Shown: positions 3,976 through 61,014 of the stretch, piece by piece
How positions within the stretch are numbered: position 1 is the stretch's first letter
How the letters are laid out: each line of letters opens with the position of its first letter
From: an uncultured bacterium
GTDB lineage: Bacteria; Chloroflexota; UBA5177; JANWHV01
DNA: 64,000 nucleotides
Direction: 5' to 3'
Assembly (NCBI GenBank): GCA_963729625.1
Contig: CAVSOU010000011.1
Coordinates: 800,001 to 864,000 of the forward strand
Program-made: the position numbers and the translations under genes
Notes under the pieces: model-generated
Database searches by the model: none
The model's input: only the letters and a program-made list of their open reading frames with translations
What the model was told of the DNA's origin: nothing

Positions 3976-4434
3976 TTACTGCCCCAGGACTGCACGAATC
4001 GTCTGAAGATGCTCCCTTGGATGGCCAATCAGGATATGCTCGATCAGACTCCCCGCTGTGCCAAAAGTGGCGGCAGCCCCGAGCTGGTCATCGCGCAGCC
4101 CGTGGACGACGCCAGCGGCGGCGAGGCCATTTGCGTGTAGGAGAGCCAGCGTCTCCGCCTTGGTGCACTGGGCGTGCTCGGCCGCGTGCTGGGCGTTAGC
4201 CTGGTCGACCATCTCCATCGTCAGGGGCGGTGGCTGTCCTGCCACGGCAGCCTTGATGAGCTCGGCAATCTCGCTGTGACCCACGGCCACGTGATGCGCC
4301 ACCACGCCCACCGAGCACTTTTCGCTGGGGCAATGAGTAACCCACTCGGCAGCGGAGAACCCTTCTACTGCCGCGATAAACTCGTCGTTCGCTTGCTCGA
4401 ACTGGGTAGCTAACGACTCGGTCGTTGCTTCCAT
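3976..4434 (-). CDS. DinB / maleylpyruvate isomerase N-terminal-like family protein
   Basis: GGAGGTG RBS before ATG 4434. Motifs SVGVVAHHVA and C-terminal HPREHLQTI (His triad). Confidence 0.85.
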   Translation of the reverse strand: MEATTESLATQFEQANDEFIAAVEGFSAAEWVTHCPSEKCSVGVVAHHVAVGHSEIAELIKAAVAGQPPPLTMEMVDQANAQHAAEHAQCTKAETLALLHANGLAAAGVVHGLRDDQLGAAATFGTAGSLIEHILIGHPREHLQTIRAVLGQ

Positions 4435-4844
4435 ATCCACCTCCTTCGCGCCTACTCGTTCGCGCATCTCGCCACGCCGCTGCGCCACATAATCTACCTC
4501 GGTGGAAAGGCCGTCCCAGAAGTGCCAATCTTTGCCCGCGCCCGCCCCTTCCTCCGATCCAAGACGAAGAACCGTATTGCGAGCGCCCACCAACCAGGTG
4601 TCGAGCCCGTGGCCAAACGGCAGCCGGTGACGCAACGCTTGAGCGATCTCACTCGGTGTGCCTGTCCGGCGCAGCGAGGGCCGCGGCAGGGTGCGGCGCC
4701 GTCGCGTCCAGACTCAACAGTAGCACGTCGCTGGCCAACTTGATAGACGTAGAGTCCGCCGAAACAAGGCCGTACTGCTTAGCGAAGCCCCCGATCTCGA
4801 TGGCCACCGGCCCGGTTGCGGAGCCCTGCACGGGCCCCCTTGAC

Positions 4845-5081
4845 TTACACGCCGACCTGCGCCGCACAACGGCCGCACAAGAGTGTAGGGAACGTGAAGT
4901 GCAGAGGGCCCCCGCATAGGGGACAGGGATCCTCCACCAGGAGATCCTGTTGGTCGGGTTGCAGCTGGTTGACGTGCTGCGCATACAGCCTGGCATAGAT
5001 CGCCACCAGCGCGTGCTCGCGCGCCTCACGATCCGCGGAGCGACCGTCCGGATCGCTCCGGTTTCCCGCGTCTGGCGCCAT
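4845..5081 (-). CDS. Small zinc-ribbon protein
   Basis: GAGGAGG RBS before ATG 5081. C-terminal CPLCGG...LLCGRC. Confidence 0.7.
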   Translation of the reverse strand: MAPDAGNRSDPDGRSADREAREHALVAIYARLYAQHVNQLQPDQQDLLVEDPCPLCGGPLHFTFPTLLCGRCAAQVGV

Positions 5082-5341
5082 GCCTTGCACCCTCCTCATG
5101 CTGGATTAACGATTCTTCCCCACTCCATAATCGAGTCGCCATCTTGGACGCGTAGCATCAATACAGGGTCGCAGGGAAGGCTCACGCGTCGAATTGATTG
5201 TTTTCGGGGAGTCGCTTCTCCTTTGGTTGCTCGCTGGCCCCGAGTGCTCGCTAACGGTGTAGCCGTTATTGCCCGCTCGATGCAGGGCCCTGGCATTGCA
5301 CGTGGCGGGCATGTCCACAGCGCCGCCTCCGGCCAACCGAG

Positions 5342-5722
5342 CTATAGCTCCAGCGGCGCCAGGCGGCTCACGATCTGTGCCGCATTGCCGGCGGGGTCCG
5401 CGAAGAAGATCATGGTATCGCCGAATGCATTCGTCGTCGGCTCTTGCACCGGCACCCCGCTCGTCCTGAGGGCCGCGAGCGTGGCCTCCAGGTTCGCCGC
5501 GTCCACCACGAACGCCAGGTGGTGTGGCAGCGTCAGCGGCGGCTGCGCGCGCGCCATGATCTCCAGGCGTCCTCCCTGGCCATCGCCGATGAAGGCAAGG
5601 TCGCCGGGATTCTCCTTGATGCGGTGCCATCCAAACAGCTGTTCGTAGAAGCGAACCGTCTCTTCGAAGCGGTCTGGCGCCGCGCCGATGCCCACGTGCT
5701 CAAGCCTGCCAGTGCTGCTCAT
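5342..5722 (-). CDS. VOC / glyoxalase family protein
   Basis: Motifs LEHVGI, RFYEQLFGW, HHLAFVV, FFADPAGN. Confidence 0.92.
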   Translation of the reverse strand: MSSTGRLEHVGIGAAPDRFEETVRFYEQLFGWHRIKENPGDLAFIGDGQGGRLEIMARAQPPLTLPHHLAFVVDAANLEATLAALRTSGVPVQEPTTNAFGDTMIFFADPAGNAAQIVSRLAPLEL

Positions 5723-6096
5723 CCTCAGTCCTACCTCTCTGCGGCCAATCGGCCGATCAGCCCCTGCCACGCCACGATGAATCAGGATTTCCGATGCTCC
5801 TGGATCACCTCATCTGTGAGTGTGCCAGGTTTCGCGTGGCCCTGGTAAACCTCACGCCGCCGGAGTTGACCTGGCACTCGCCGGCGCCGGCTCAGCCGAG
5901 ATGGCCTGCTCGATCGTCCTGCACCTTGGCGTGGTGACAAGGCAGGATCCGAATGCCGCACGTTCATCGCCGACACCGGACCAGCAGACCCGAGCTTCGC
6001 GTGGCAGGAAGGTTTGCGGGATCCGAAACGCTCAGGTATATGTTCTGCGTACTGTCCGCGGTTTCAGGCGGGGACACGCGCCATTTGGAGGTAGCT

Positions 6097-7014
6097 GTGT
6101 TAGTCAACGGGATCGTCGCCTCGTCGGTTACGCCGTTCAGCCCGACCGGTGAACTGAATCTGGACCTCTTGCCGGCGCACATCAATTGGCTCATCGGGGA
6201 AGGCGTGAGCGGCCTATCGCCACTCGGCAGTGCCGGTGAGTTCGTCGCCCTGGAGGTCACCGACCGCAAGCGCCTTCTGGAGGGCGTGCTGGCAGCCAAC
6301 GATGGGCGTGTCCATGTAATGGCCGGCACGCATCATTACGCGACGCATCTCGCCGTCGAGTTGTCTCGACATGCCCAAACGGCAGGAGCACACTCCCTGC
6401 TTGTAGTCCCTCCCTATTACATGGCCCCGTCGGTCCCACAGGCGATGGACCACTATCGCAGGCTCGCGGATGCCGTGTCCATACCCGTAGTCCTCTACCA
6501 CAATGCGAGCGGCACGCGGGTCGACCTGCGCACCGAGCATCTCGTACAACTCTTCGATGAGGGCGCGATCGCTGGCGTCAAGATGTCCAACAGTGATCCC
6601 GATCGCATCAGTAGCCTGCTCCAGGCCACCGGCGGCCGGCTCGTCGTCTATGCCGGCATCGACACGGTGGCCTTTGAAGGGCTGTGCCACGGGGCGCACG
6701 GCTGGATCTCCGGCATCCCCAGCATCGTCCCGCGTGCCGCGCGGGAGCTCTATGAAACTGTTGCAGTCCGCGGCGATCTCGCCTCGGCACGCCGGCAGTG
6801 GCGGGCGCTCGCTCCCCTTATGCGCTTGGTGTTTGCCGGCCACATCCATGGGACCGGTCTGGAACCGCACTGGCTGAGCATCATGAAGGCGGCCCTTAAC
6901 ATGATTGGTCCGCCGGTCGGCAATCCGCTCCCACCGGTTCAACCACTGGACGAGGCGACAGCGCGGGTGCTGGCGGCGTTGTTGCGCGATCTTGGCTACG
7001 CCGTTCGCGCCTGA
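6097..7014 (+). CDS. Dihydrodipicolinate synthase (DapA/NAL) family lyase
   Basis: GGAGG RBS then GTG at 6097. Motifs TPF, GSAGEF, PPYY, VVLYHN, Schiff-base GVKMS. Confidence 0.93.
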   Translation: MLVNGIVASSVTPFSPTGELNLDLLPAHINWLIGEGVSGLSPLGSAGEFVALEVTDRKRLLEGVLAANDGRVHVMAGTHHYATHLAVELSRHAQTAGAHSLLVVPPYYMAPSVPQAMDHYRRLADAVSIPVVLYHNASGTRVDLRTEHLVQLFDEGAIAGVKMSNSDPDRISSLLQATGGRLVVYAGIDTVAFEGLCHGAHGWISGIPSIVPRAARELYETVAVRGDLASARRQWRALAPLMRLVFAGHIHGTGLEPHWLSIMKAALNMIGPPVGNPLPPVQPLDEATARVLAALLRDLGYAVRA

Positions 7015-7083
7015 GCACGAACGGCGTTTCGCAGAAGCAGTGGTTACCGACTCCACCCAGCGCCGGAAAGGGACCGTACACTG

Positions 7084-8172
7084 ATGGATGGCAGCAGCAG
7101 CGGCGCGGACCATGCTGTAACCGTGCCCGCGCGGGACCTCGCGCATTTCGCCGCTCAGCTGCTCACGGCAGCCGGTGTGACTCGCGATGATGCGGAGATG
7201 ACCGGCGGTATCCTGGCCGACGCCAATACACGGGGTGTCGACACGCACGGCGTCGCCCTGCTTACCCTCTACCTCGGGCAGCTCCGGCGTGGAGCGGTCA
7301 ACCGGTGCCCTCACAGGACATTCACGCCGCGGCGAGCGGCGACTGCAATCCTCAATGCCGATCACGGCATGGGTCATGCCGCCACGGCAGAGGCGATGGA
7401 GCATGCGGTGCGCATGGCCAAAGTTGCCGGCGTGGCGACAGTCCTGGTGGAGAACTCGAATCACTTCGGCGCCGCGGCCTATTACGCGATGCTAGCCGCG
7501 CGCCATGACTGCATAGGCATGGTATGGTCGCCCGCGGAGCCCAGCGTCGTGCCATTCGGAGGGCGCGAGAGGTTCTTCGGTACCAATCCTATTGCTATCG
7601 CGGCTCCACCAGGCACGCAGTACCCGGGGTTTACCCTCGACATGGCGACCAGCGTTGTGGCAGGCGGCAAGATCGCGCAGGCCGCCAAGAACCACCGGAC
7701 CATCCCGCCAGGCTGGGCAATCGACCAGCATGGATCGCCCGTAACGCGACCGTCGGACGAAGACGCCATACTGGGAACGTACTCCTTGCTTCCGATGAGC
7801 GGCGCCAAGGGCTATGGTCTGGCCATGATGATCGATTGGACATCATCTCTCCTGGCGGGCACGCACTGGGGCCCGACCGTTCCGCGTTGGAGCGATGGTG
7901 CGGAGGACCCGGCGTCGATTGCCCACTATGTTCAGGCGCTCGACGTCGAGGCGTTCGTCCCGCTTGATCAGTATCGGCGTCGTGTCGACGAGTTTTGCGC
8001 GGCGCTCAAGAATGTGCCTCCCGCCGACGGGCACCGCGAAGTCCTGCTGCCGGGCGAGCCGGAGTTGCTCACGGCCCGCGAGCGCGCGAGGACGGGGTGT
8101 CCGCTGACGGCCCACGTGGCCGCAGTGCTCGCACAATTGAGCGCCGAATATGGGGTACCGCTGCCCTTTTGA
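7084..8172 (+). CDS. Ldh_2 family oxidoreductase (malate/L-lactate/DpkA-like)
   Basis: Motifs RGVDTHG, NSNHFGAA, FGTNPIA, LDMATS, KGYGLA, LLPGEPE. Confidence 0.93.
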   Translation: MDGSSSGADHAVTVPARDLAHFAAQLLTAAGVTRDDAEMTGGILADANTRGVDTHGVALLTLYLGQLRRGAVNRCPHRTFTPRRAATAILNADHGMGHAATAEAMEHAVRMAKVAGVATVLVENSNHFGAAAYYAMLAARHDCIGMVWSPAEPSVVPFGGRERFFGTNPIAIAAPPGTQYPGFTLDMATSVVAGGKIAQAAKNHRTIPPGWAIDQHGSPVTRPSDEDAILGTYSLLPMSGAKGYGLAMMIDWTSSLLAGTHWGPTVPRWSDGAEDPASIAHYVQALDVEAFVPLDQYRRRVDEFCAALKNVPPADGHREVLLPGEPELLTARERARTGCPLTAHVAAVLAQLSAEYGVPLPF

Positions 8173-8220
8173 CGCCGGCACTAGGTCGTGCTAGCCGCGA
8201 CGAAGGCCCCGCCTGCCTCC

Positions 8221-9351
8221 TCAAAGGCCAAATTGCGGCACCTCAACGGCTGCTCCGCCGGCCAGAGCGGACTCATGCGCGCAGATTCCCGCGGCAGTCC
8301 AGTTGGCGGAGGTCACTGAGTCGACTGCAGGTCGACGTGACTCGACGATGCTGCGCACGAATTCGTGTACCAGGTGGGGATGCGATCCACCGTGCCCGCC
8401 GCCCTGAATGAATGAGAGGTGAGGCTCGGCGGCATTGTAAACGCCGCACTGCGTGAACCGCGCGATCTCGGATGGCAACAGGTCACCGCGGTCAGGAACG
8501 GCGATGCGCTCGACCTGTATTGGCCGGCCTCGCCCCGGCTGCAGGGCATCCATCGTGAAGAGGACCGGCTGCTCCTCCTCGATCTGCTGCCACTCAAATG
8601 AGCGCTTTTCGCCGTAAACGGAGAAGCACTCGGTGTAGGCGCGCGCGGTATGAAACAGCGTCCGGGTTACTTCCAGTGCCGCATTCGTACCCTCGAGCGC
8701 GAAGATCGCGGTTTCTGCCGGAAACGTATTGCCATACGGGCGATGAAGCTCCTCCCGCATCTCACCCGAGCCAAAGCAGTGCACGCGCCTGGCCCGCGCG
8801 CGGGCGAGGCAAAGCAGCGGCGAGATGGCATGCGTGGCATAGTGCATAGGTGGCAGCCCCATCCAGTAGCTTGGCCAGTTCTCCATGTCCTGGAAGTGAG
8901 CGCCGCGCAACAACTGTACGTTGCCGATTTCACCGCGGGTCATCAGGTCGTGCGCGAAGAGGAACTCGCGCGTGTAGACGGCCGTTTCCATCATCATGTA
9001 GTTCCGGTTGGCTTGTCGCTGCGCCGCCACGATGCGGTGCAGATCGGCAATGGACGTCGCCATGGGTACGGTGCAAGCACAGTGCATCCCTGCTTCCAGC
9101 ACGGCGATGGACTGCTCCGCATGGATCGGTATCGGCGTGACCAGGTGTATGGCGTCGAGGTCCTGATCGAGCATCTGGCCCAAGTCCTGGTATCGGCGTT
9201 CCAGCCGGTAGTGGTCGCCTAACGCGGCCAGAATACCGGCGTTGGGGTCGCAGATAGCCACGCTCTCTACGTCCGGGTGGGCCAGGTAAATCGGCACGAA
9301 CTCGGCGCCGAAACCCAACCCCACGACTCCAACACGAAGCTTCCTCGGCAT
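8221..9351 (-). CDS. Gfo/Idh/MocA family oxidoreductase
   Basis: Rossmann VGVVGLGFG, TPIPIH, HCACTVPMA, PPMHYATH, GGGHGGSH. GAAGGGG RBS before ATG 9351. Confidence 0.92.
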   Translation of the reverse strand: MPRKLRVGVVGLGFGAEFVPIYLAHPDVESVAICDPNAGILAALGDHYRLERRYQDLGQMLDQDLDAIHLVTPIPIHAEQSIAVLEAGMHCACTVPMATSIADLHRIVAAQRQANRNYMMMETAVYTREFLFAHDLMTRGEIGNVQLLRGAHFQDMENWPSYWMGLPPMHYATHAISPLLCLARARARRVHCFGSGEMREELHRPYGNTFPAETAIFALEGTNAALEVTRTLFHTARAYTECFSVYGEKRSFEWQQIEEEQPVLFTMDALQPGRGRPIQVERIAVPDRGDLLPSEIARFTQCGVYNAAEPHLSFIQGGGHGGSHPHLVHEFVRSIVESRRPAVDSVTSANWTAAGICAHESALAGGAAVEVPQFGL

Positions 9352-9792: not shown

Positions 9793-10536
9793 CTACGGCT
9801 TCGCCGCCTGTATCGGTTGACTCACCGTATACCAGGAGCCAGTTGTAGGGTCGCGAGTCAGGCCGGGCGTTTCGGGGAAGTACGCGCCCTGCAAACTCGA
9901 TCGCGGTATCCACTTATTGCTGATAGTGTCGAACACAACATTGACAGAACCTGGCCCGGTGGCCATTTCATTGCCCGGAGAAGAGCTGTACAGCACCAAT
10001 GACCCGTCATTGTATTGCTGAAATTGAGCTGGCGTCAGCTGCGGTTCCATGGCGCCCAGCGTGCCGGCCGATTGGCTCGCGGTGCTGCTTGTGCCGCTCG
10101 CAACGAGCGGCAGCGACGAGGCAAGCGTCAGCTCGATTCCCTGGCTGGAAGCTGACTGCGTTGCCCCGGTCGTCGAGGGTGTTGTGCTCTGGCCCGTGTC
10201 GCATTCGATCGCCTGGGCAAGCGACTGCACGAGATCCTGGCCGTTGAAATGCTGCGCGGCATTGAAGCCGCTAGGCGGACCGTAGGTGTTGCCGTCAAAG
10301 GGAATGCCGCCTGCTCCGGTGCTGGCCGTGACATCCTGCGCGCTGCCAGAGATTAGCGCCTGCTCAAGGCTCTGCAGCGCGTCGGTAGAGATCTCCGCCG
10401 AATCGGTTGACTGCGAGTTGCCGGATTGACTGGGCCGCGCGCTTCCGGCTACCTGCGTGATTACCTGCTGCTGCAACTGTTGTACACGTGCCGAGACATC
10501 TGGGTAATTCAATCCGCCTATTCCTGAGGTACCCAC
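9793..10536 (-). CDS. Hypothetical Ser/Thr/Gln-rich low-complexity protein
   Basis: 247-aa ORF, GTG start with GAAGGGAG RBS, no signal peptide or TM segment. Confidence 0.65.
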   Translation of the reverse strand: MGTSGIGGLNYPDVSARVQQLQQQVITQVAGSARPSQSGNSQSTDSAEISTDALQSLEQALISGSAQDVTASTGAGGIPFDGNTYGPPSGFNAAQHFNGQDLVQSLAQAIECDTGQSTTPSTTGATQSASSQGIELTLASSLPLVASGTSSTASQSAGTLGAMEPQLTPAQFQQYNDGSLVLYSSSPGNEMATGPGSVNVVFDTISNKWIPRSSLQGAYFPETPGLTRDPTTGSWYTVSQPIQAAKP

Positions 10537-14700: not shown

Positions 14701-15202
14701 GCATGCCATCGCGCTGGCGCTGGGCAAAACCTTCTTGCAGAATGGGCTGGACGTCAAAGAATCGCAGAAACAGTTTGACAGTAATCAGGCAGTCTCGATC
14801 GGGCTGTTCGACCTGCTCGAGGGCTTCATGGGGCTGGGCTTGATCGTCGGAATTGCAGCCCTGGGCGTCGTCGCGACCAGGGCCGTGGTCGAGCGCCGCC
14901 AGGAAATCGGCATGATGCGGGCTATCGGGTTCCGGCGCGCAATGATTCGGACCACGTTCCTGCTGGAATCGAGCTTCGTGGCCATTCTTGGCACGCTGCT
15001 CGGCATCGGTTTGGGCCTGCGTGTGGCCCAGAATCTGATCGACGAGATCGCGAAGACCAATAGCAGTATTGCCTTCACGGTCCCCTGGCTGCAGATCGTG
15101 GCGATCGTGGCGATCGCGTATGTCGCCTCGCTCATCACGACCTACCTGCCGGCGTGGCAGGCCTCGCGCGTCTACCCGGCGGAAGCATTGCGCTACGAGT
15201 AA
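11726..15202 (+). CDS. ABC transporter permease with two FtsX/MacB modules
   Basis: ATGA overlap with the ATPase. [12 protein letters not shown] start, two ERR-x-E-x-G-M-x-RA-x-G motifs, C-terminal [17 protein letters not shown]. Confidence 0.95.
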
Positions 15203-15590
15203 GCGGCCCGCAGCGCTTTTCTGAACGTTCCAGCCCGACTGCAAGTGGAACGTGTACAGGTTCGTGCCGGGTGGTCCGCCATTCATGATCGCCAGCGCGA
15301 TAGTGTGGCGGATCTGTGCCATCAGCGTGTCGCTCGTCTTGTACAGGAACTGGCCATTCACGGGAATGCAGCCAGACCACCAGCCAGGCTACTTCGCGGT
15401 AGCAGCCCCACCAGCAGTGGTTGGCCCGATGCTGTCAGACGTGCCCGCCCGAAAATCCGGGTGCGACGGAACCGCTTGTCAAGTGAGGTACGATGATCTC
15501 AGCTGAGTACCGCTGGAACCATGCTCGTGATGCTCAGGCAGACGCTCAGTGAGCAGAACCACTTTGGGGCGCTGGACGAGGCAGCTTGCT

Positions 15591-16637
15591 ATGAGACCGT
15601 TCGCCGTGTTCGCGATTCTCGGCGCGCTGCTACTCAGCGGCTGCGGATCGTCGAATACCTCAAAGCCGGGGGCCGGAAGCGGTACCAACGTGTCGACCCT
15701 GGCAAGCGTGCCGTCCTGGCCCCTGCCTGGACTGTCGCCAAGCGTGACGGTCACGCGGCAGGACTTCGCAGCCGGGTTCGCGGGAGCGCTGCTCACGCAG
15801 ATCGAGCGGCAGGGGCGCTTCACGCGCAGCGCCGACCCAGCCCGGCCTCAAAGACTTGACCGGGGGGCGTTGCTGTCCGTGCAAGGTCTGTCGCCATCGG
15901 CCCACGTTCCCTTTTCCTCCAATGTGTTCCTTGGTCCCCTGGAATATGAGCCATCTGCCGTGTCTGGCTTGTCGCTGTCGTCCAAGCTCAATGCCGAGTT
16001 CGTGAAGCACTATTGCCTGCCCGCCAGGGGATCGGGCCGCTGCGCGAAGGTCGGTCGCGCCACGGGCATCATCGCCCTGCTCACGCCGGAATCGATTCGC
16101 AGCCAGGCACGCGGTTTCACCCGCGCGAGCGACACGGACTACGGTCACGCGTACGGAGGGGCAGTACTCATTCGGCCACCTGGATATCAGACCGGGAAGG
16201 GAACGACGCAAGCGGGGCATCAGCTGGGATACGAGCTTGGCGGTCCCGTGAAGGACGCAAGGAATTTCGTGACCCAGTTCGACCTGGCCAATGCTCCAGC
16301 CCAGAGCAGCCTCGAGAACGCGGTAAAGGATGAGCTGACGCCGTTCAGCACAAGCTCGGGTAAGTCCAGCGGCGTCACCGTGTTCCTTCGCGTGACGCCG
16401 ATGTATCGGGAATCGTGCGTCGTTCCATACGAAGTGCACTACGAAGCCGTTGGCTCCGATGGCTGGCAATTGCCACAAACGGCAGTGGGGTTGGCGGCAA
16501 AATGGCTCAGGTTCGAGCGCACAAATGACGGTATCACCGTCGCGATCATCCGCAACGCAGTACAGTCTGGGCACACATGGCTGGTGCCCGGCCAGGATCC
16601 GAAGGCGACCTGCGTTCCCAGCGGTTACTCGGGGTGA
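15591..16637 (+). CDS. Lipoprotein with C-terminal DNA/RNA non-specific endonuclease domain (Endonuclease_NS_2-like); putative toxin
   Basis: Lipobox LLLSG-C after a hydrophobic signal, then Ser/Gly linker. C-terminal GRATG...AGHQLGYELGG...RNFVTQ...AN...LENAVK...FLRVTPMY...VPYEVHYEAVG pattern. Confidence 0.82.
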   Translation: MRPFAVFAILGALLLSGCGSSNTSKPGAGSGTNVSTLASVPSWPLPGLSPSVTVTRQDFAAGFAGALLTQIERQGRFTRSADPARPQRLDRGALLSVQGLSPSAHVPFSSNVFLGPLEYEPSAVSGLSLSSKLNAEFVKHYCLPARGSGRCAKVGRATGIIALLTPESIRSQARGFTRASDTDYGHAYGGAVLIRPPGYQTGKGTTQAGHQLGYELGGPVKDARNFVTQFDLANAPAQSSLENAVKDELTPFSTSSGKSSGVTVFLRVTPMYRESCVVPYEVHYEAVGSDGWQLPQTAVGLAAKWLRFERTNDGITVAIIRNAVQSGHTWLVPGQDPKATCVPSGYSG

Positions 16638-16639
16638 TC

Positions 16640-17254
16640 ATGGCGCTCATGGATCTGCGGCAACGTCTTCAGCCGCCAGCTCGGCCAATGGACGCGGGTT
16701 CGCCGTCGGACTGGGCCGCCGCCGAGTCTGCGCTTGGAATCAGCTACCCGCGCGATTTTCAGGAGTTCATCGGCACGTACGGGAGCGGCGCCATCGACGG
16801 CATCATCAGCGTGATCAATCCGATGAGCGTCAGCTGGCGTGGTGCACCGGCGTTCGACACCTTGCCTCACGCGTTGGACGCCTTGCTTGCCGCGTTCAGC
16901 CCCTGTGGCAGCGCGCCCGAAGCGTGGCTATACGGGCTCGCGTCCACGCTGGCTGTCTGCAGCGGCTGGGAATCTCTCACGCTCGCCGGACGGAGCACGC
17001 CGATGCCGGTCCGGCTCTGGCCCGAGCTTCCGGGGCTGTACCCGTGGGGCCGTGGCGATGCCGGCCAGGCCCTGCTCTGGTGGACGGAAGGGATGCCTGA
17101 GCAGTGGCCCGTGGTCCTTGCCGATCCGTCGGAAGGGCTGCGCACGTACGGCATGGACATGACGAGCCTGCTGGCGGGGTGGCTTTCCGGATCCGTCGTG
17201 CTGGAGTATCTGCCGCGAGTCCACCGGCCGCGCTTCAGCCAGGAGGAGGCCTGA
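16640..17254 (+). CDS. SMI1/KNR4 (SUKH) family immunity protein
   Basis: Starts 2 bp after the nuclease stop. Motifs DWAAAESALGISYPRDFQEFIGTYGSG and LYPWG...LLWW...PEQWPVV. Confidence 0.9.
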   Translation: MALMDLRQRLQPPARPMDAGSPSDWAAAESALGISYPRDFQEFIGTYGSGAIDGIISVINPMSVSWRGAPAFDTLPHALDALLAAFSPCGSAPEAWLYGLASTLAVCSGWESLTLAGRSTPMPVRLWPELPGLYPWGRGDAGQALLWWTEGMPEQWPVVLADPSEGLRTYGMDMTSLLAGWLSGSVVLEYLPRVHRPRFSQEEA

Positions 17255-17328
17255 CGCCACGTTCCGATGGATACATACGGCACCGCGAAGGCCAGCCAGG
17301 ACGTGAAGCGCAATCTCGCACGGTGCAT

Positions 17329-17910
17329 CTACTTATTCCCCTCACGGACCGGGTTGGTGAGGCCGTGCCGAATGAGGCCGGTCAAACCGAGCTTCACGGA
17401 TTCGACGTCGGCGACTCCCTCGGAAATGGCCCAGTACGCCATGCCGTCGAGCAAAGTCGCCAGCATCGGCACATCGTACGGTCCATGGTCTGGGCGAAGA
17501 TATGGCTCTACAAGGGCCGCGATGCGCTGACTGAGCAGGTGGCGGCGCCGGCGCTGGAATTCCGGCGCCCCGCCGCTGTGCAGCACGGCGAGAAAGCCCG
17601 GCTCGTCGATCAGGATGTCAAACGCGGCGGAGATTACCGAGTGATCCCCTTCCGGAATGGCGACCGTGCGTGCCGCGACAACGACCGGCTCCAGGCGCGC
17701 CCACAACCGCTCCAGACCGTTGTCGAATAGGGCTTCCAGAATCGCCGACGTGGTGGCGAAGTACGTGTAGATCGTCGGCCGAGACGTCCCCAGCCGGGCC
17801 GCGATGTCGCCCATGGTAACCTGCTCGAAGCCTCGCTCGATAAACAACTGCTGCGCTGCCACAAGGATCTGCTGTCGCCTGTCACTCGCGCGCAAAACAC
17901 CGTCCTCCAT
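17329..17910 (-). CDS. TetR/AcrR family transcriptional regulator
   Basis: HTH ILVAAQQLFIERGFEQVTMGDIAARLGTSRPTIYTYF. Divergent from the MMPL gene. Confidence 0.95.
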   Translation of the reverse strand: MEDGVLRASDRRQQILVAAQQLFIERGFEQVTMGDIAARLGTSRPTIYTYFATTSAILEALFDNGLERLWARLEPVVVAARTVAIPEGDHSVISAAFDILIDEPGFLAVLHSGGAPEFQRRRRHLLSQRIAALVEPYLRPDHGPYDVPMLATLLDGMAYWAISEGVADVESVKLGLTGLIRHGLTNPVREGNK

Positions 17911-27753: not shown

Positions 27754-27881
27754 ACCGTCGATCCATCAGTGCCAAGCAGTCAAGGTCCCGAGCCCGTTCG
27801 ACCTATCGCGCACGGTGAGAAAGCGTGCATGCCGGCGCTGTCCCGGAGCTCGGGCAGACGCGGCTGAAAGGGGGAAGTGCG

Positions 27882-30800
27882 ATGCAATGCCCACGGTGCA
27901 CGTACGAGAGCCAGGTCGCGAACGTGCAATGTCCTGGCTGCCATTGTACGTTTGTCAGGGCCGAGCTGGAGGAGCTTGACCACCTGAAATACACGCTGGA
28001 CCGGCTGATGCGCTGGTACGATAAAGGCTTGCTCCCACCCAGAACCGCCGACCGTCTCGCACAGCTGACACATGCCGACACGCGCGCATTGCTGGCGCGC
28101 ATCGGCGAGCGACAAGCGCCGGTGTATCCGGCATCCAGCCAGGGAGCCGCACCGGCGGAGGCGCCGGCGAGAGTGCACGCCGAAGCAGCGGCCGTCGCGG
28201 CGAAGGCCGCAAGCCAACCCGTGCAGGCGGCCGCTGCCCCGTCTGTCGGCGTGCCGGCTGCCCGACCCGCGCCGGAAGCCCCGCGAGCCGCAGCAGCAGC
28301 CCTTGGCCAGGCCTCGACGCGCGCCGGGGTGATGGCCCAAGGGCCGGCCATGCAGGGAGCCGCGGTATCGAGCCCTCACGGTTCTGCTTCTCCACGACCG
28401 CTATCTCCGGCGATGGCCGTGCCGACTCCGCCGTCGAAGCCAACTCGCAGGCCGTCGCCCTCGTTCAGCTGGAAGCAGGTGGGTACGTACCTGCTCTCCG
28501 AGCGCACGCTCAATGCCCTGCTCGGACTGGGCGCCTTCCTCATCCTGGCGGCGGCGGTGGTAATCTCAACGGTGAACCCCACCGGGCTCGGGCCGGTGCT
28601 TCACCTGGCGGCGATGGTCGGCACGACTGCAGTCTTCTATCTGGCCGGAGCGCTCGTGCAGAAGCGCCTGCGCCTGGCGCGCACGGGTGCCACGCTGCTG
28701 GCAGTCGGGGCTGTCTTCATCCCGCTCGACGCGTGCACCTTTGGCAGTGACCTGCTGAAGTGGGAGCCGAGCGCCATCTGGGTTCTGGCGTCGCTTGTCT
28801 GCCTCCTCATCTACCTGCCCTCGCATCTCTCGCTCTACGATCGCGCGTCGGCAATCCTCACCGCTGCTGCCGGCGGCAGTCTCGTCCTGTCGCTGGCGCG
28901 CCCGCTGGGCGTGGACCCGATTTGGGGCGGCTGTGGACTGGTTGTCCTTGCCGGCGTCTATCTGATCGTCGCGGACCGGCTTCGCCACAGCCAGACGAAC
29001 CTGCATTGGGCACTATCCTGGGCGGCACAGCTGGCCACGCCTTCGGCGATGGCAGGCTTGCTTGCGCTGCGCTTCAGTCGGCAGCTCCTGGGCACCTTCC
29101 CGCCGGATTCCTTCCTGCAGACACTTGGCGCTCTACCCGGCGCTTCCATGGACTATGCGGTGGGTGTGACCTGGTGGCTGGGCGCGGCCTTCTATGTCCT
29201 GGCCACGCAGCTTGTGCCACGGCGCGCCAGTTCGCTTGCCGCGGCCTGGATCGTCCCCTGTGCCTTCCTCTTCACGCTCACCAAGGCGCCCTTCGACCGG
29301 GAGTGGTACGGCGTCGCCCTGGCAGCGCTGGCCGTGCTCTACATGCTGTTCGGGCGCCAGGTCCAGCGTGCGCTCAAGGGCGTGGCGCGTCCAACCCTGA
29401 TACAGTTGCTTGGCCAGCCCGTCTATCAGGTCGGCCTGACGCTGGCCGTGGTAGCGGGAATGTGGCCCGCGGCGATCTCGGTAGCCCGGCTCACTTCCAG
29501 CAGCGAGGCGATCGCTCTCTGGATACTGGTCGGTCTCTTCGCCTGGTCGGCGTTCACGTTCAAACACATCCTGTTTCGCTACGCCGCCGCATACCTGATC
29601 CTGGCGGCACTGGCGTGCATTCCGCCCGAACACCTGTTGTCGATTCCCGATCGGCCTGGCCTCGGGCTTGCGGCGCTGGCAGCCGGCTACCTGCTGTTTG
29701 GCTGGCTCACGGGCGGGCAGGCGATCAGAGGCGACGGGCCGTCCGCCCGGAGGGCGGTCGCTCGCGATCCGGTTTTCCAGGTAGCGGCATGGTGCACGGC
29801 CGCGGCCGCCTTGTGGCCGGCCCTCACCTCCCAGGCGACGTTCGTCACGGCCGAGGAGATCACTGCGCTCATCGCCGTTGCTCTGGTGTACGGCGCCGCG
29901 GCATTCCTGCTGGAACAGCGTGCCTGGGCCTACATCTCCGTTTCTCTCGTGCCGATTGCCTGGGGACTGTTTATGGCATTCCGGGCATACGACGACGGCC
30001 CGACGCTGCTTGGCTGGGCGCTGCTGGCGGTTGCGTTGTGGGTTGCCGCCGAGGTGGCTGCGCGACGCACGTCGGAAGGCAGGCGGCCGCTGATTGAGAC
30101 GGTGGTCGGTCTCGGCAGCTGGCGCTCTCGCTTCGCCTCACCGCTCTTCGCCGCCGGCTATGCAGTGAGCGTGATGGCCGTATTGGTTGGCTTGGCGCAA
30201 GCCTCGGATGCTTCCGCCATGCCTGGGCAGAGCGTCGCCGGTCTCCTGGTCGTGTGCGCGCTGTACGTCATCTCGTCGGCGAGCCGGCGGAGCAGCGTGT
30301 TCCTCTACCCGGCTACCTGGCTGTTTCTGTTGCCGCTCACCGCCGTGGTGTCGCACGCGTACGCGCGCTCGGGCATGGCCTATACCGCCGCGCAGGACGC
30401 ACGGGTGATGGCGGTGCTTGGGCTTGCCTATCTGGCACTGGCCTTCATCGTGGATCGTGCCGGCGGGCACTATGCGAAGCCGGTCTACCTGGCGGCGTAT
30501 GCCCTGGTGGTTCTGGGTGTCGCGACGGCGATTCCCGACCGGCCGATGATCGTGCAGACACTGGGCGCTGGGCTGGTCGCGCTCGCCTGGTCGGCCTGGC
30601 TCGTGCATAGCGGCCGGCACCCGTCCTACGCGTGGACGGTGGAACAGCTGGTGGCGAGTGTATCGGCCACGGTGTGGGATGCAGCCGAGATGCTGTTCCA
30701 GTATTTGGCCGTCTGGCTGTTGCCGGTCTGGGTGATCCTGCTGCAGAGCCTCCGATCGCCCCTTCCTGCGACGGCCGACTACGGCGTGACCCTGGCTCTC

Positions 30801-32945
30801 CTGGCGCTTGTCTACGCCCCCGTGGGACTGCTCTTCCGGCGAATCGACGTGGCCTATCGGCTGCCATGGCTGATCGGCGCCTACGCGCTGTCGGCAATGG
30901 GTCCGTTGGTGGCGTTGCCGGATCCCACACTGCGCATCGCCGCGCTGACGATGTCCATCGCGCTCTACGTGGCCAGCGCCCTGCAGTCGCGCCGGCATGA
31001 ATGGCTCTGGCTCACGGCGGCGCTGGGGCCCGTGCTTCTGCTGGAATGGGTCATTCGTGCCGGCGACGTGGCTCGCGACTACGGCATCGCTCTGGTAGTG
31101 ATGAGCCTCGGCTACGGCGTGATCGGCCTGGTCATTCAGCGCCGTGGCCTGCGCGGTCTGTGGATGCCCTTGCGCGAGACCCCCGACCGGTTCGCCCTTC
31201 CCTTCCTGGCGATCGGGCAGGCGCTCTGCATTGCAGGCCTGGCCCTCGTGCTGGCGGTGCAAAGCTCGAGTGCGGCGCTCGGGCTAACACTGCAGAGTCC
31301 CATGCTGGTATTGATCGGCTTCACGCTCGGAGCCGTGCAGTATGCCTGTGCCGCGGCCATCTCTCGACGCAGCATCTTCAGCTCACCGCTGGCGCTCACG
31401 CTGGTCGTGGCCTACCTGAGCGCGATGATCAGCAGCGGACTGCCGGCTGTTGACTTTGGCCCCGCACTGTTGCCAGGTCTCTGCGCTTTCCTGCTCATCG
31501 CGGAGACCTTACGTCGCACAGCTGATACCGCGGACGTCGTGGCGGAGCGCCGGCGCAAGGCCGTCACCGGCAGCTGGGCGCTGCCGTTCGAGACGTTCGT
31601 GCACATTGGCGCCGTGTCCGCCTTCATCCTGAGCGCGCAAGACACCAATCAGACGCTTGCCTGGTGGGGCGTCGCTGCGCTCTACGTTATGCTCGCCGCC
31701 ATCCGGCAGCAGCCCGGCTGGCTCTATGCTGCTATCGGTTCCGCTCTTGCTGCATTCGTGGGAACGGGAGTTCTCCTGGCGCCCGATCTCACAATGCCGG
31801 AGCGGCTGCTCATCCTTGTGCCTCCGGTCTACGCTCTCGCCGGAGTCGCCCATGCAATCCGTAGCCGGCCGGCTGCTGAGTCCAGATCTGCGCCGCCGTA
31901 TTTCCGCTGGAGCGGCGCTGCGCCCGGTCCCTGGGCCGAACCCCTCCTGACCTGGGGCTCTGTCACCGCGATCGTGTCCGTCGCGCTCAGCGGCGGTGAT
32001 GCCGCCCTTCACGCACGCGTGGCCGACCTGTGGGTAGCCGCGGCCTACCTGTTCTTGGCGACGATCCTCTCGGTGCTCTGGCAGGCCCGGCCACTCGTCT
32101 GGGCCGCTATCGCGACCGTTGCCCTGACGTTCGAGGAGGCGTTAATGCTGGCAGGTGTCCGCTGGGCCGACCAGCCGGCGTGCTGGGCCGGCGCTGCCCT
32201 GGTTGCCTACTTCGCCGCAACCGTGTGGAAGCGGTCGCCGGGCAGGGTAGCAACGCTCTGGAGCTCTCCGCTGCAGTGGGCGTCGCACGCGGCCGGCATC
32301 GCCGCAGTCGCGGTGGCCCTTGCCAACCTCAGCCTTGGGCAGTACGCGCTGCAGCCGCTGGCGGTAACCTTGACCCTGGCCGGCGCATACCTGATGATAG
32401 GCGGGATTGTCGAGCGCCGGCGCATCCTGTCCTACGCGGCCATCGGCCTGGTGTATGGCGCCTACGCCTGCGAGCTTGCCTACAGACAGGTATCCCAGCC
32501 GCAAGCATTCGCGCTTGCGCTTGGGGCTTCTCTGCTGCTTGTGGCGTACCTGGAGTGGCGGCGCGGCGCGGATACTGCAAAGGGGCTGTTGGAGCTGGCA
32601 GCGATCGCGGTGATACTTGGTACGACCCTGGTCCAAGGCTGCGGTGGTCTTGGCGTTGGCAACGATCGTTATAGCTATGACACGTTCCTGCTGCTCGAGA
32701 GCGTGGCCGTGTTCGGCCTGGGTGCGGTCCTGCATTGGAAGCGCCTGTTCTTCGCGGCCTGTGGCGCCCTTGTAGTGGACGTATGCATCCTGCTGGTCGA
32801 TCCGGTGCGGTCGATGCAGGCGTGGTATCTTGTGGCGATCATCGGTTTTGCCATGATCGCGTTGGTGGTCTTCCTCGAGCAGCGGCGGCAGCAGATCCCG
32901 CTCTGGATCGATGAAGTGCGCTTGCGCCTGGATGCCTGGGACTGA
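27882..32945 (+). CDS. Giant polytopic membrane protein with N-terminal zinc ribbon (DUF2157/SCO7613-like)
   Basis: MQCPRC...CPGC, Ala/Pro linker, LSERTLNALLGLGAFLILAAA, then dozens of TM helices, ending ...LEQRR...RLDAWD. Confidence 0.85.
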   Translation: MQCPRCTYESQVANVQCPGCHCTFVRAELEELDHLKYTLDRLMRWYDKGLLPPRTADRLAQLTHADTRALLARIGERQAPVYPASSQGAAPAEAPARVHAEAAAVAAKAASQPVQAAAAPSVGVPAARPAPEAPRAAAAALGQASTRAGVMAQGPAMQGAAVSSPHGSASPRPLSPAMAVPTPPSKPTRRPSPSFSWKQVGTYLLSERTLNALLGLGAFLILAAAVVISTVNPTGLGPVLHLAAMVGTTAVFYLAGALVQKRLRLARTGATLLAVGAVFIPLDACTFGSDLLKWEPSAIWVLASLVCLLIYLPSHLSLYDRASAILTAAAGGSLVLSLARPLGVDPIWGGCGLVVLAGVYLIVADRLRHSQTNLHWALSWAAQLATPSAMAGLLALRFSRQLLGTFPPDSFLQTLGALPGASMDYAVGVTWWLGAAFYVLATQLVPRRASSLAAAWIVPCAFLFTLTKAPFDREWYGVALAALAVLYMLFGRQVQRALKGVARPTLIQLLGQPVYQVGLTLAVVAGMWPAAISVARLTSSSEAIALWILVGLFAWSAFTFKHILFRYAAAYLILAALACIPPEHLLSIPDRPGLGLAALAAGYLLFGWLTGGQAIRGDGPSARRAVARDPVFQVAAWCTAAAALWPALTSQATFVTAEEITALIAVALVYGAAAFLLEQRAWAYISVSLVPIAWGLFMAFRAYDDGPTLLGWALLAVALWVAAEVAARRTSEGRRPLIETVVGLGSWRSRFASPLFAAGYAVSVMAVLVGLAQASDASAMPGQSVAGLLVVCALYVISSASRRSSVFLYPATWLFLLPLTAVVSHAYARSGMAYTAAQDARVMAVLGLAYLALAFIVDRAGGHYAKPVYLAAYALVVLGVATAIPDRPMIVQTLGAGLVALAWSAWLVHSGRHPSYAWTVEQLVASVSATVWDAAEMLFQYLAVWLLPVWVILLQSLRSPLPATADYGVTLALLALVYAPVGLLFRRIDVAYRLPWLIGAYALSAMGPLVALPDPTLRIAALTMSIALYVASALQSRRHEWLWLTAALGPVLLLEWVIRAGDVARDYGIALVVMSLGYGVIGLVIQRRGLRGLWMPLRETPDRFALPFLAIGQALCIAGLALVLAVQSSSAALGLTLQSPMLVLIGFTLGAVQYACAAAISRRSIFSSPLALTLVVAYLSAMISSGLPAVDFGPALLPGLCAFLLIAETLRRTADTADVVAERRRKAVTGSWALPFETFVHIGAVSAFILSAQDTNQTLAWWGVAALYVMLAAIRQQPGWLYAAIGSALAAFVGTGVLLAPDLTMPERLLILVPPVYALAGVAHAIRSRPAAESRSAPPYFRWSGAAPGPWAEPLLTWGSVTAIVSVALSGGDAALHARVADLWVAAAYLFLATILSVLWQARPLVWAAIATVALTFEEALMLAGVRWADQPACWAGAALVAYFAATVWKRSPGRVATLWSSPLQWASHAAGIAAVAVALANLSLGQYALQPLAVTLTLAGAYLMIGGIVERRRILSYAAIGLVYGAYACELAYRQVSQPQAFALALGASLLLVAYLEWRRGADTAKGLLELAAIAVILGTTLVQGCGGLGVGNDRYSYDTFLLLESVAVFGLGAVLHWKRLFFAACGALVVDVCILLVDPVRSMQAWYLVAIIGFAMIALVVFLEQRRQQIPLWIDEVRLRLDAWD

Positions 32946-58557: not shown

Positions 58558-61014
58558 CTACCGCTTGACCAGGCTCGCGCAACTATACAGTTGTTGGCCG
58601 CCTCCTCTGCCGAAACCGCCGGAGTTGCTCGTCGTGGTCTGCCACTGGCTGGACGGCACCGCCGTGCAGTGCGCCCGCACCCATTGTGTCAGGTCGCCGG
58701 TGGCATCGGTGCTGCCGGTAAGCTGGCTCGACGTGATTGCGCTCTGGCCCGTATTGGCCTGCGTGAACTGACTATCGCCGCCGCCGGCCGGAATGTAGAA
58801 GTAGCGCACGGTGTTGCTGGCTACTGCCTGTGCCAGCTGGGCCGGTGTGAGAATGCGATCCCAACCCTGATAGCCGCCAAGGGCCATCGCCGGCTGGTTT
58901 GTCTGCAGGATGAACAGGCTCGCATACGACGAGCTGGTAGTCGCCACGAGGAACTTCGCTCCACGCTGGTTGGCGATCAGGTAGTTGATGAGCTTGGCGT
59001 CCAGAGTCGGTATTTGGTCGCCCGCGAAGGTCATGGCGCCGCCGCTTCCACCACCAAAGCCGCCTCCGCGCCCGGAGCCGAAGCCGCCTCCGCCCAGGAA
59101 CTGCCGCTGCGATCCGCCCTGGCCGAGAGCGAAGCCATTGCCTCCAGCAGTTGTCTGCGTCTGCCCGCCCGGTGCGCTCCCTCCGCCCGTGGCCTGCTGG
59201 GCACTGCCGGGAATCTTGCCCACACTGCCGCCGGAACTCTGGCCTGGCCTGGAGAAGCCCCCCGCTTGGCCGTTGAAGCCCTGCCCCGACACATTCGAAC
59301 CGCCCGACTGACCGCTGAAGCCCTGTCCAGGCTGGGCGAATCTGCGGTTTTGGCCGCCGAAGCCCTGGCCGAATCCGTTGCGCGCGCCCCCGAACGCGCC
59401 TCCTCCGCCAGCCGTCGCGCCCCCGCCGGGACCCGCTTGAGGCAGCCAGGCGCTCCCATCTCCATCCGCCACCGATTGTGCCGACCAGGCCGCGGGCGCG
59501 GCGGCCAGGACCAGCAGCGCCAGAGCAACCGCCGTGCCGGCCCAGATCCGCGTCCCTTCCAACACGACGCCCGGCGCTACCTGCACGTGTACGCGCAGCA
59601 ACGCGAGCGTGAGTGCCAGCGCTGCCACGACCGAACCGGCGATAAGCACGGGCTGCAGCCAGCCGCCCCAGTCCGGATACGCCTGCAAGATCTGGAACTG
59701 CAGATAGGCCGTGGCCAGCAACGCGGCCGGCAGCAGCCAGGCGACCAGGCGGTTGAGGCCTCGCCCGTCAAATGCGCCGCGAGCATAAAGCCGCCAGAGC
59801 GATGCCACGCCGATCCCGGCCAGCACGGCCGCGGGCGGCGCCAGCATCACGAGATAGTAGAGGTGGTAGAAGCGGCCGGTGCTGAAAAAGATGCTGGCCG
59901 CGGCGAGCCAACCTGCCCACAGCACAACCGACTGGCCGCGCTCGTCGAGCGGCAGACGCCAGCGAAGTCCGATCAATGCGGCGACCAGGCCGATGAGTGC
60001 AAGCGGCAGGAACCAGCTTGCCTGTTCGGCTATGACAGGAGTCACGAGCCTCAGAATGCTCGGGTTGCCGATCTCCGGCGCGAACGCCGGCACGACATTG
60101 AGGTCGATTGTAATGCCGAAGATGTGCACGCCCGATAGTCCGGAGAACAGCGCCTGCGTCACCCGCCCCAACCCGTTGTAGCCCAGGGCGAGACTGAGCG
60201 CCGAGTTCGTGCCGCTGTCGCTGACGAACGGTCGCGATCCGGCGGGCGTCATGTCGACGGCCACCAACCAGGCCAGCGAGACGATCAGCAGGGCCAGCAG
60301 CGCGCAGGCAAGGTGGGCGATGCGCGCTTTCCAGGTGCGTGGCGCTCCCAGCAGGTACATGAGCGCGAGAGCGGGCACCACGAGATAGGCCTGCATCATC
60401 TTGATGTTGAAGCCGAATCCCACCAGCACCGCGCTCAGCAGAAGAAACCGCAACTGTCCGCGCTGTGTTGCCTCGATCGCCGCCCAGGCTGCGAGCAGCA
60501 GCGTAAGGATCAGGAGGCTGTCGATCGTGTTATTGCGATCGGTAATCGCGGTGATGGGGGTGATGGCCAGTGCCAGCGCGGCGACGAGGCCGGCAACCGG
60601 ACCAAATGGGCGAGCCACGAGCAGGTAAAGCAAACCCACCGACAGCACGCCGGCCAGCGCTTCGGGCACAAGCATGCTGATGCCACTGAACCCGAACAGT
60701 TTAGCGCTGGCCACCTCGACCCACAGACCCAGCGGCGGCTTGTCCACGCTGACGAATCCGCCGGCGTCGAAGGACGCATAGAAGAAGTTATGCCAGCTGG
60801 TCAGCATGCTCTTGACGGCAGCCGCGTAGTACGAGTTCGCATAGCCTTCGCCCGAAAGGCCTATGAACTCCAGCGACGCTGCCAGCACCAGGATCGGCGC
60901 CAGGGCCGCGCGCGGCCACCAGAGAGGCAGGCCGCGCCGCTGCGACGTTGCCTCCAGGCCTTCAACTGATTGGCTGCCGGCGAGCGGAAGATCCTCCACG
61001 GCGATCGTAGCCAT
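58558..61014 (-). CDS. Glycosyltransferase family 39 (GT-C, YkcB/YycA-like)
   Basis: Motifs YANSYYAAAVKSM, SWHNFFYASFD, VDKPP, RNNTID, GFNIKMMQA, GYNGLGR, MALGGY. Gly-rich insert. Confidence 0.94.
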   Translation of the reverse strand: MATIAVEDLPLAGSQSVEGLEATSQRRGLPLWWPRAALAPILVLAASLEFIGLSGEGYANSYYAAAVKSMLTSWHNFFYASFDAGGFVSVDKPPLGLWVEVASAKLFGFSGISMLVPEALAGVLSVGLLYLLVARPFGPVAGLVAALALAITPITAITDRNNTIDSLLILTLLLAAWAAIEATQRGQLRFLLLSAVLVGFGFNIKMMQAYLVVPALALMYLLGAPRTWKARIAHLACALLALLIVSLAWLVAVDMTPAGSRPFVSDSGTNSALSLALGYNGLGRVTQALFSGLSGVHIFGITIDLNVVPAFAPEIGNPSILRLVTPVIAEQASWFLPLALIGLVAALIGLRWRLPLDERGQSVVLWAGWLAAASIFFSTGRFYHLYYLVMLAPPAAVLAGIGVASLWRLYARGAFDGRGLNRLVAWLLPAALLATAYLQFQILQAYPDWGGWLQPVLIAGSVVAALALTLALLRVHVQVAPGVVLEGTRIWAGTAVALALLVLAAAPAAWSAQSVADGDGSAWLPQAGPGGGATAGGGGAFGGARNGFGQGFGGQNRRFAQPGQGFSGQSGGSNVSGQGFNGQAGGFSRPGQSSGGSVGKIPGSAQQATGGGSAPGGQTQTTAGGNGFALGQGGSQRQFLGGGGFGSGRGGGFGGGSGGAMTFAGDQIPTLDAKLINYLIANQRGAKFLVATTSSSYASLFILQTNQPAMALGGYQGWDRILTPAQLAQAVASNTVRYFYIPAGGGDSQFTQANTGQSAITSSQLTGSTDATGDLTQWVRAHCTAVPSSQWQTTTSNSGGFGRGGGQQLYSCASLVKR

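Follow-up and report, generated by a model that had tools for sequence, protein, structure and literature searches.

Why would a bacterium place a gene for a SUKH-type protein with no export signal two base pairs behind the gene for a nuclease that seems destined to leave the cytoplasm? The question is raised by two adjacent genes, P0001 (nuclease) and P0002 (SUKH), in a stretch of 64,000 nucleotides, here called the window, from an uncultured Chloroflexota bacterium of the lineage UBA5177; JANWHV01 (GenBank assembly GCA_963729625.1, contig CAVSOU010000011.1, positions 800,001 to 864,000 of the forward strand). An earlier note on this DNA had proposed a new contact-dependent toxin system, in which a lipoprotein nuclease would be delivered into neighbouring cells and the SUKH protein would confer immunity. 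The reading that we favour, with moderate confidence, is that P0001 is a self-protected, membrane-tethered surface nuclease and P0002 its cytoplasmic fail-safe inhibitor. The source genome, G000, in which the window is G000:C11:800001-864000, measures 5.4 Mb, is 87% complete and carries one copy each of the nuclease and the SUKH gene. The features of the locus are the following.

15591..16637, forward strand: nuclease gene P0001, 348 aa, ATG at 15591 and stop codon at 16635-16637 (open reading frame, ORF, and translation)
15591..15644, forward strand: predicted signal peptide with lipobox L-S-G-C, the codon of Cys18, tgc, at 15642-15644 (direct reading of the sequence)
15645..15710, forward strand: low-complexity linker rich in Gly, Ser, Thr and Pro, residues 19-40, with a predicted local distance difference test (pLDDT) of 43-60 over residues 1-40 and variable columns in the family alignment A1
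15711..16634, forward strand: a single predicted Sda1/Spd1/EndA-like beta-beta-alpha-Me nuclease fold, residues 41-348 (AlphaFold2, AF2, with VIA-align and Foldseek)
16116..16175, forward strand: family-specific insertion, residues ~176-195, absent from remote toxin tips in alignment A3 and the site of much of the predicted contact with the inhibitor
16218..16316, forward strand: catalytic core, with H210 at 16218-16220, N225 at 16263-16265, N234 at 16290-16292 and E242 at 16314-16316
16640..17254, including the stop codon, forward strand: SUKH gene P0002, 204 aa, ATG at 16640 (ORF and translation)
15203..15590, forward strand: intergenic region of 388 bp, 5′ of the pair and after the gene of an FtsX permease, with a presumed promoter

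At the junction of the two genes the sequence reads ggg-tga-tc-atg, so that a spacer of 2 bp separates the stop codon of P0001 from the start of P0002. An alternative GTG at 15549 would lengthen the nuclease by 14 aa; the ATG at 15591 is favoured because the homologues in A1 begin at the residue aligned with it. In the public annotation (P0018) the SUKH gene starts at Met17 and gives a protein of 188 aa, while conservation of residues 1-16 across 14 homologues (L10, P13 and P16 among them) supports the 204-aa form.

The nuclease, its anchor and its fold

The nuclease family comprises 16 clusters, with 15 homologues of P0001 at 55-74% identity. Two homologues bear the source name "Chloroflexota bacterium". 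The N-terminus of P0001, M-R-P followed by a hydrophobic run and LLLSG-C18, was read by eye as a type II (lipoprotein) signal, and the lipobox announced by the earlier note is indeed there, with Cys18 as its cysteine. The sole NCBIfam match of the protein was a weak one to a lipoprotein-signal model (E 0.064), and G000 encodes two Lgt and one LspA. In A1, the lipobox column holds Cys in 8 of the 16 members; four others are truncated and the remaining four have a hydrophobic N-terminus without the Cys, so that all 12 members that possess an N-terminus carry a hydrophobic export or anchor segment. Judged from the alignment, tethering appears to be maintained in the family by two distinct means. 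Four cysteines are kept in 15 of the 16 members and in four to six of six giant relatives described below, whereas the same columns hold Cys in only 0-4 of 100 remote toxin tips, 71 of which are without any Cys in the domain; this contrast fits an extracytoplasmic workplace of the nuclease.

What kind of enzyme is tethered in this way? Alone, P0001 falls just short of the Pfam model Endonuclea_NS_2 (PF13930; 26.1 bits against a cut-off of 27, E 1.1e-5, residues 197-285), a model to which each of the 16 family members has a match at E ≤ 0.01, the best at 4.7e-12. When the A1 profile was run against the PDB, it found Spd1 (2xgr, E 3.2e-5), with H210 placed on the histidine of the GH motif and N234 on the Asn whose mutant is structure 2xh3. 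An AF2 model built with only the 16 family rows reached a pLDDT of 39.1 and was discarded; the 122-row alignment A3, used instead, gave a pLDDT of 85.8 and a predicted template modelling score (pTM) of 0.84, with confident residues at ~41-348. Compared by VIA-align with 48,161 chains, this model was closest to Sda1 (Z 13.6, 171 aligned residues, root-mean-square deviation 3.1), then to Spd1 (Z 12.5), S. agalactiae NucA and EndA (both Z 11.8), EsaD (Z 11.0) and, at Z 9.6, the Serratia nuclease and Anabaena NucA, the first unrelated row standing at Z 3.6. Foldseek concurred (Spd1, E 3.5e-7), and the Anabaena NucA structure 2o3b was present in both fold lists.

As the top VIA-align matches span model residues ~39-339, the model describes the mature protein as a linker of ~22 residues and one complete nuclease fold with family-specific insertions. 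It agrees with the architecture of the DRGH/NucA family, in which a beta-beta-alpha-Me finger is inserted into a central sheet. The structure prediction thus bears out the nuclease domain of the earlier note but not its separate, unrecognised N-terminal region of ~140 aa, which from about residue 40 onwards would be part of the nuclease itself. If the whole mature protein is one nuclease fold, there is no room in it for a translocation, escort or delivery domain.

The best structural matches over the whole mature P0001, Sda1, Spd1, EndA and S. agalactiae NucA (5fgw, 2xgr, 3owv and 4qh0), include streptococcal DNases that are likewise exported, EndA being described in PMC3025545 as attached to the membrane and exposed at the surface. 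P0001 is only 21-23% identical to the streptococcal DNases in the structural alignments and differs from them in having QAGH for DRGH, four conserved cysteines, ~120 extra residues in the form of insertions, a lipobox tether and an adjacent inhibitor gene.

The exchange in the active-site motif deserves attention, since it opens the way to an alternative: P0001 might be a weakened nuclease, or a surface protein that merely binds nucleic acids, next to a SUKH neighbour with some other role. In favour of this, QAGH replaces DRGH or RGH throughout the family (A208 in 16 of 16 members, compared with Arg in 88 of 100 remote relatives), P0001 alone is just below the Pfam cut-off, and a six-frame search of G000 with PF13930 gave 0 matches at E ≤ 0.001 and so missed P0001 itself, a result that says little for a protein just under the cut-off. 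Against it, H210, N225, N234 and E242 are kept in all 16 family members, in all six giant relatives and in 96-100 of the 100 remote relatives; the 122 rows of A3 show no exception at N225 and E242 and few at H210 and N234. The H-N-N arrangement of the DRGH/NucA family, with a general-base His, a structural Asn and a metal-ligand Asn, is thereby present, as is the Glu close by. The roles of these residues were assigned from H160 and N191 of EndA (PMC3025545). According to the same paper, the EndA change R158A reduces activity less than other active-site changes, for which reason P0001 would still be expected to be catalytically active; in the giant relatives the residue here is R, P or K. A dedicated partner that is predicted to lie over the active site also argues for a dangerous activity. 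We consider the weakened-enzyme alternative improbable and expect the enzyme to be active: P0001 would be an exported, lipobox-bearing, non-specific His-Me nuclease of the DRGH/NucA family. The claim of an intact catalytic His, Asn and Glu in a nuclease-like domain therefore stood, with N225 as an additional conserved residue and with a matched His-Me fold.

The SUKH partner and the predicted cap over the active site

Alone, P0002 lies below the Pfam cut-offs, with 23.8 bits for SUKH_5 (cut-off 27) and 18.2 and 16.5 bits for the other two SUKH-family models. The family around it is more telling. Among 14 members, SMI1_KNR4 is matched at E ≤ 0.01 in 11, SUKH_6 in 10 and SUKH_5 in 9, and the profile of this family (A2) reaches a named SMI1/KNR4 protein at E 1.7e-15, which itself passes SUKH_6 (48 bits against 27) and SMI1_KNR4 (31.4 against 25.4). 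From these profile matches P0002 is assigned to the SUKH (SMI1/KNR4) superfamily. There is no hydrophobic stretch within its first 30 residues. The SMI1/KNR4 gene without signal peptide, 2 bp downstream, is thus as the earlier note had described it.

When the two proteins were modelled together, the complex obtained an interface score (ipSAE) of 0.89, the median of three runs (0.89, 0.01 and 0.90), while the best of three controls scored 0.00. The mark used for this score is reached by 116 of 157 solved complexes and by 2 of 215 mismatched pairs. The partners had a pLDDT of at least 83 and the contact agreement was at least 83%. On the nuclease side, the predicted interface comprises residues 207-210, 234-236 and 242-243, thus including H210, N234 and E242, together with residues 177-179, 181, 186 and 189-193 of the family-specific insertion; the SUKH protein contributes the invariant D140, P163 and E165 to it, along with residues around 187-193. 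The model supports a SUKH protein that would bind over the nuclease active site. By sequence no similar solved complex was found, the best match of A2 in the PDB having an E of 1.5.

Are the two genes, then, a cognate pair in other genomes too? The SUKH family counts 17 close clusters, and pairing beyond the window was inferred solely from equal contig sizes: three nuclease/SUKH cluster pairs lie on contigs of equal size (6616, 2749 and 15438 bases) and were taken to share a contig. Of five nuclease clusters on contigs longer than 5 kb, two pair with a SUKH cluster in this way and three do not. No related loci were returned by the A1 scans of genome and metagenome contigs. Contig pieces from three runs, 150-330 bases long and at low depth, span the gene junction with 0, 9 and 6 differences, but they come from near-identical strains and are not independent evidence. 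The adjacent gene and the complex model support a cognate pair, the three equal-sized contigs speak for its conservation, and the three long-contig nuclease clusters without a SUKH match speak against it. As a separate observation, P0010, P0013 and P0014 have an extra, basic C-terminal tail of ~60 residues after the conserved end CVPPGYA (A1 columns ~380-428), and this tail-bearing subgroup coincides with clusters that have no matching SUKH cluster.

Why should an exported enzyme need an inhibitor inside the cell? The earlier note had argued that a surface nuclease used for scavenging would not need a cytoplasmic immunity protein, but NucA/NuiA, NucA/Nin and barnase/barstar contradict this argument. 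Cytoplasmic inhibitors of secreted nucleases have been viewed as a back-up against sorting failures, with NucA/NuiA, barnase/barstar and colicin E3 as examples (PMC2790893), and B. subtilis nucA adjoins nin (PMC5758888). In NucA/NuiA (2o3b), NucA/Nin and barnase/barstar, the gene of an exported nuclease adjoins that of a cytoplasmic inhibitor directed at the substrate site, an arrangement that is predicted for the window pair too, and Anabaena NucA belongs to the same fold superfamily as P0001 (Z 9.6). The window pair also follows the NucA/NuiA type in that an export signal is seen on the nuclease alone. There are also differences: the window inhibitor has a predicted SUKH fold unrelated to NuiA, Nin and barstar, the nuclease would be tethered by lipid while theirs are released, and inhibition is here a prediction.

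On the reading of a self-protected surface nuclease, events may be pictured as follows. Both proteins would be made from one mRNA, a coupling suggested by the 2-bp spacer. The pre-nuclease would be exported unfolded through Sec, lipidated at Cys18 by Lgt and cleaved by LspA, as the presence of these genes suggests. Omp85 was found in none of five genomes of the genus (83-95% complete) and matched in seven of seven diderm controls, and LpxC was not found in G000. The host cell is thus probably without an outer membrane, in which case the lipoprotein would face outwards from the cytoplasmic membrane, held there by its lipid anchor and the flexible linker of ~22 residues. It would fold outside the cell, probably with two disulfides (C142/C151 and C276/C341), and degrade extracellular DNA or RNA; by homology, H210 would act as the general base and N234 would bind Mg. 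Any nuclease that folded in the cytoplasm before export would be captured and blocked by the SUKH protein. Such an enzyme might serve nucleotide scavenging, EndA-like DNA processing at the surface or turnover of matrix DNA; delivery into other cells, while possible, is required by nothing that we have seen.

The same tight spacing of a nuclease gene and an inhibitor gene could also be expected of an intracellular toxin-antitoxin or anti-phage defence pair. However, the N-terminal export signal in all 12 members that have an N-terminus speaks against it, neither protein has a match in PADLOC and no phage or mobile genes were seen nearby among the large ORFs scanned, so that we hold this explanation to be very improbable.

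Surface enzyme or delivered toxin?

A more serious competitor is an interbacterial toxin/immunity pair, in which the nuclease, tethered or cleaved at its linker, would enter the cytoplasm of neighbouring cells while the SUKH protein protects kin. We take this tentatively as a possible explanation. Its route, not encoded here, might be vesicles, membrane contact or an unidentified importer. Both explanations share the export signal, the intact active site and the capping partner, and they differ in whether the nuclease enters other cells.

Several observations weigh against a mere surface enzyme. The whole module (P0001 residues ~41-346) is found at the extreme C-terminus of giant proteins of 906-2340 aa, which phmmer relates to P0001 with E values of 3e-53 to 4e-41, and an extreme C-terminal position is typical of polymorphic toxins. 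More remote relatives, which share only the core (~190-293, with ARGHLLG), form the tips of RHS, PT-HINT and T7SS-signal proteins. The distribution of the nuclease is very patchy (one of five genus genomes and one of 21 class-sample genomes), as would suit an accessory competition gene. Three nuclease clusters, P0008, P0013 and P0014, lie on contigs of 12221, 60090 and 14262 bases and have no SUKH cluster on an equal-sized contig, and one of the three complex runs scored only 0.01. Sec substrates are unfolded as they cross the membrane, and many exported nucleases do without an inhibitor. To our knowledge, the characterised SUKH proteins are immunity proteins of delivered toxins. For EndA, no protein inhibitor was known at the writing of PMC3025545.

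The relatives themselves came from a search of 1.84 billion representatives with the A1 profile, which returned 255 matches, many with PF13930 above its cut-off. They agree with the view of the earlier note that Endonuclease_NS_2 domains serve as toxin tips. The giants carry fn3, Kelch, LamG or lectin-type domains and no RHS match, and P0032, P0033 and P0034 have signal-like N-termini. Polymorphic toxins that have only a signal peptide, with LamG or beta-propeller repeats, are described in PMC3113570 and PMC3482391 and resemble the giant relatives; Sec-dependent ones with beta-propeller repeats are listed in Table 1 of Zhang 2012 (PMC3482391), which also favours a toxin. Scans with P0180 (genome contigs) and P0032 (metagenome contigs) gave no related locus for the giants. 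As an observation in its own right, P0032, P0033/P0180, P0034, P0035 and P0037 all bear the ~305-aa module at their C-terminus, and they may be polymorphic toxins or giant surface nucleases.

A further point for a toxin comes from a genome of the same genus, G001. There, an RHS-repeat locus (L023, G001:C12:1-9437, ~4255-8845) is split over several frames, with 58 bits for RHS_repeat in the ORF 4255-5535, and ends in a PF13930 tip (47.9 bits) that lies in another frame than the preceding 676-aa ORF. A 273-aa gene follows this tip; it has no Pfam match, yet its first 50 residues resemble P0002 (BLASTP E 4e-6). This may be a toxin locus in decay, or else the assembly carries frameshifts here. In G000, 40 RHS_repeat matches were found, none of them inside the window and the nearest ~15 kb beyond its end. 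The RHS loci of G000 lie at C8:~560900-563500 on the reverse strand, and at C17:~87200-89100 and C11:878688-879930 on the forward strand; two of these loci have open frames of ~2930 aa, and the third, ~15 kb past the window, is split into 264 and 706 aa.

There are also precedents in the literature for pairing such proteins. SUKH genes beside NucA-family nuclease genes were noted across distantly related bacteria, and the prediction was made that they form toxin/immunity pairs (Zhang 2011, PMC3113570), and SitA1/SitI1, a lipoprotein nuclease with a SUKH immunity gene, was described in 2017 (PMC5562445). SitA1/SitI1 resembles the window pair in having a lipobox with a disordered stretch behind it, a C-terminal nuclease and a SUKH gene directly downstream. 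SitA depends on TraAB, on an outer membrane and on an escort domain of ~375 aa (PMC8546572); this escort domain, polymorphic toxin ends, a WHH nuclease (not of the NucA type) and a restriction to Myxococcales set it apart from the window pair. Membership of P0001 in SitA was considered and rejected, given the absence of an escort domain (~22 residues lie between lipobox and fold) and of an outer membrane (Omp85 in 0 of 5 genomes); TraAB was not searched for. With Omp85 missing from the genus and LpxC not found in G000, outer-membrane exchange of the SitA type would not be available as a route.

What, then, sets P0001 apart from a delivered toxin? Its mature part is only the nuclease fold, without a translocation, receptor-binding or escort domain. 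The polymorphic toxins of Zhang are variable tips on constant N-terminal parts, whereas the P0001 family is a constant, stand-alone, tethered nuclease: all 16 members carry the same nuclease, without C-terminal polymorphism. Residues 25-110 were never found with another C-terminal domain among the 255 matches, the sole such matches being two short fragments, so that the variable C-terminal toxins that the earlier note had suggested looking for on the same N-terminal part did not appear. Nor was a paralogue, an orphan or an arrayed immunity gene found. What the pair does share with polymorphic toxins is the toxin domain and an adjacent gene of an immunity type. Four of the 12 N-termini lack the lipobox Cys, and lipid-dependent transfer would therefore not be general to the family. 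The four conserved cysteines are absent from canonical toxin tips, and in a scan of large ORFs no mobile-element or secretion genes stood beside the pair. The single fold without an entry domain, the constant architecture, the two types of tether and the four cysteines together favour a tethered extracellular nuclease, and the claim of a new contact-dependent toxin system is not borne out.

One form of the toxin explanation would concern the family as a whole, which might consist of lipid- or helix-anchored nuclease toxins with SUKH immunity in monoderms, derived from the tips of giant surface toxins and delivered by a contact route so far undescribed in such bacteria. Delivery may then rely on membrane contact, on vesicles or on linker cleavage followed by uptake, as a TraAB-free counterpart of SitA. 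We find this rather unlikely. Among the papers listed from the open-licence literature, the lipoprotein toxins recognisable from title or abstract were all myxobacterial SitA and none was from a monoderm, and no paper joined Endonuclease_NS_2 with immunity. PMC3482391 reports a lipobox in MafA and in the Amoebophilus APD1/2 effectors, but in no NucA-type nuclease.

Surroundings, distribution and what the pair would mean

The pair has a G+C content similar to that of its neighbourhood. Upstream of it lie genes for an ABC ATPase and a 1158-aa FtsX permease, and downstream a TetR gene, an MMPL gene and a D-serine-dehydratase-like gene. A scan of 15100-17500 found no sigma-70-like promoter and no terminator consensus. 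Among the 41 other large ORFs of the window, the only ones scanned, no secretion, phage or mobile-element genes were seen and none for RHS, LXG, WXG or HINT, in agreement with the earlier note, which had reported no RHS, LXG, WXG or Hint gene here. Homologues of the ABC permease are present in four of four genus relatives, all without the nuclease; in G001 the TetR-MMPL-dehydratase block is retained and a DUF4180 gene flanks it in place of the pair. At protein identities of 58-79%, synteny with these relatives tells little about the insertion of the pair.

Elsewhere in the window, three stretches without a bearing on the pair may be mentioned. At 27825-32945 on the forward strand lies an ORF of 1706 aa without Pfam match, whose translation begins with a Cys-rich, zinc-ribbon-like N-terminus and, beyond an Ala/Pro-rich stretch, runs through dozens of hydrophobic segments, as a giant polytopic membrane protein might. 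At 9793-10536 on the reverse strand, just upstream of the ABC transporter genes, a 247-aa ORF rich in Ser, Thr, Gln and Gly, also without Pfam match, may encode a secreted protein of low complexity, unless it is no gene at all. At 58558-63323 on the reverse strand, tandem PMT_2/YkcB-type glycosyltransferase genes (818 and 769 aa) fit an envelope with glycosylated components.

In the phylum, the two genes are rare. The A1 profile matched 2 of 61 genomes of relatives and 2 of 401 phylum genomes, in each case G000 and a weak match in G001, and the A2 profile found G000 and one weak stretch elsewhere among the 401; a high-score match to either family was obtained only in G000. The nuclease family is small, with its 16 clusters, environmental and close to a known logic. 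Pairing a nuclease of the DRGH/NucA family with a SUKH-family inhibitor does not make a new kind of system; the novelty lies in the architecture, in which a stand-alone, Sda1-like nuclease, tethered by lipid or helix, has a SUKH partner in what is probably a monoderm.

If the pair is a surface nuclease with its fail-safe inhibitor, it would be the first case found in which the SUKH fold takes this role for a tethered nuclease of the Sda1/Spd1/EndA type, and the complex model offers a testable picture of how such a nuclease may be capped. Should it be a toxin instead, bacteria that have no outer membrane would seem to possess a route for delivering membrane-anchored toxins. The reading as a self-protected surface nuclease would, if true, make it harder to tell an immunity protein for a delivered toxin from a safeguard against an enzyme that the cell itself secretes, a distinction that matters wherever SUKH neighbours serve to annotate toxins.

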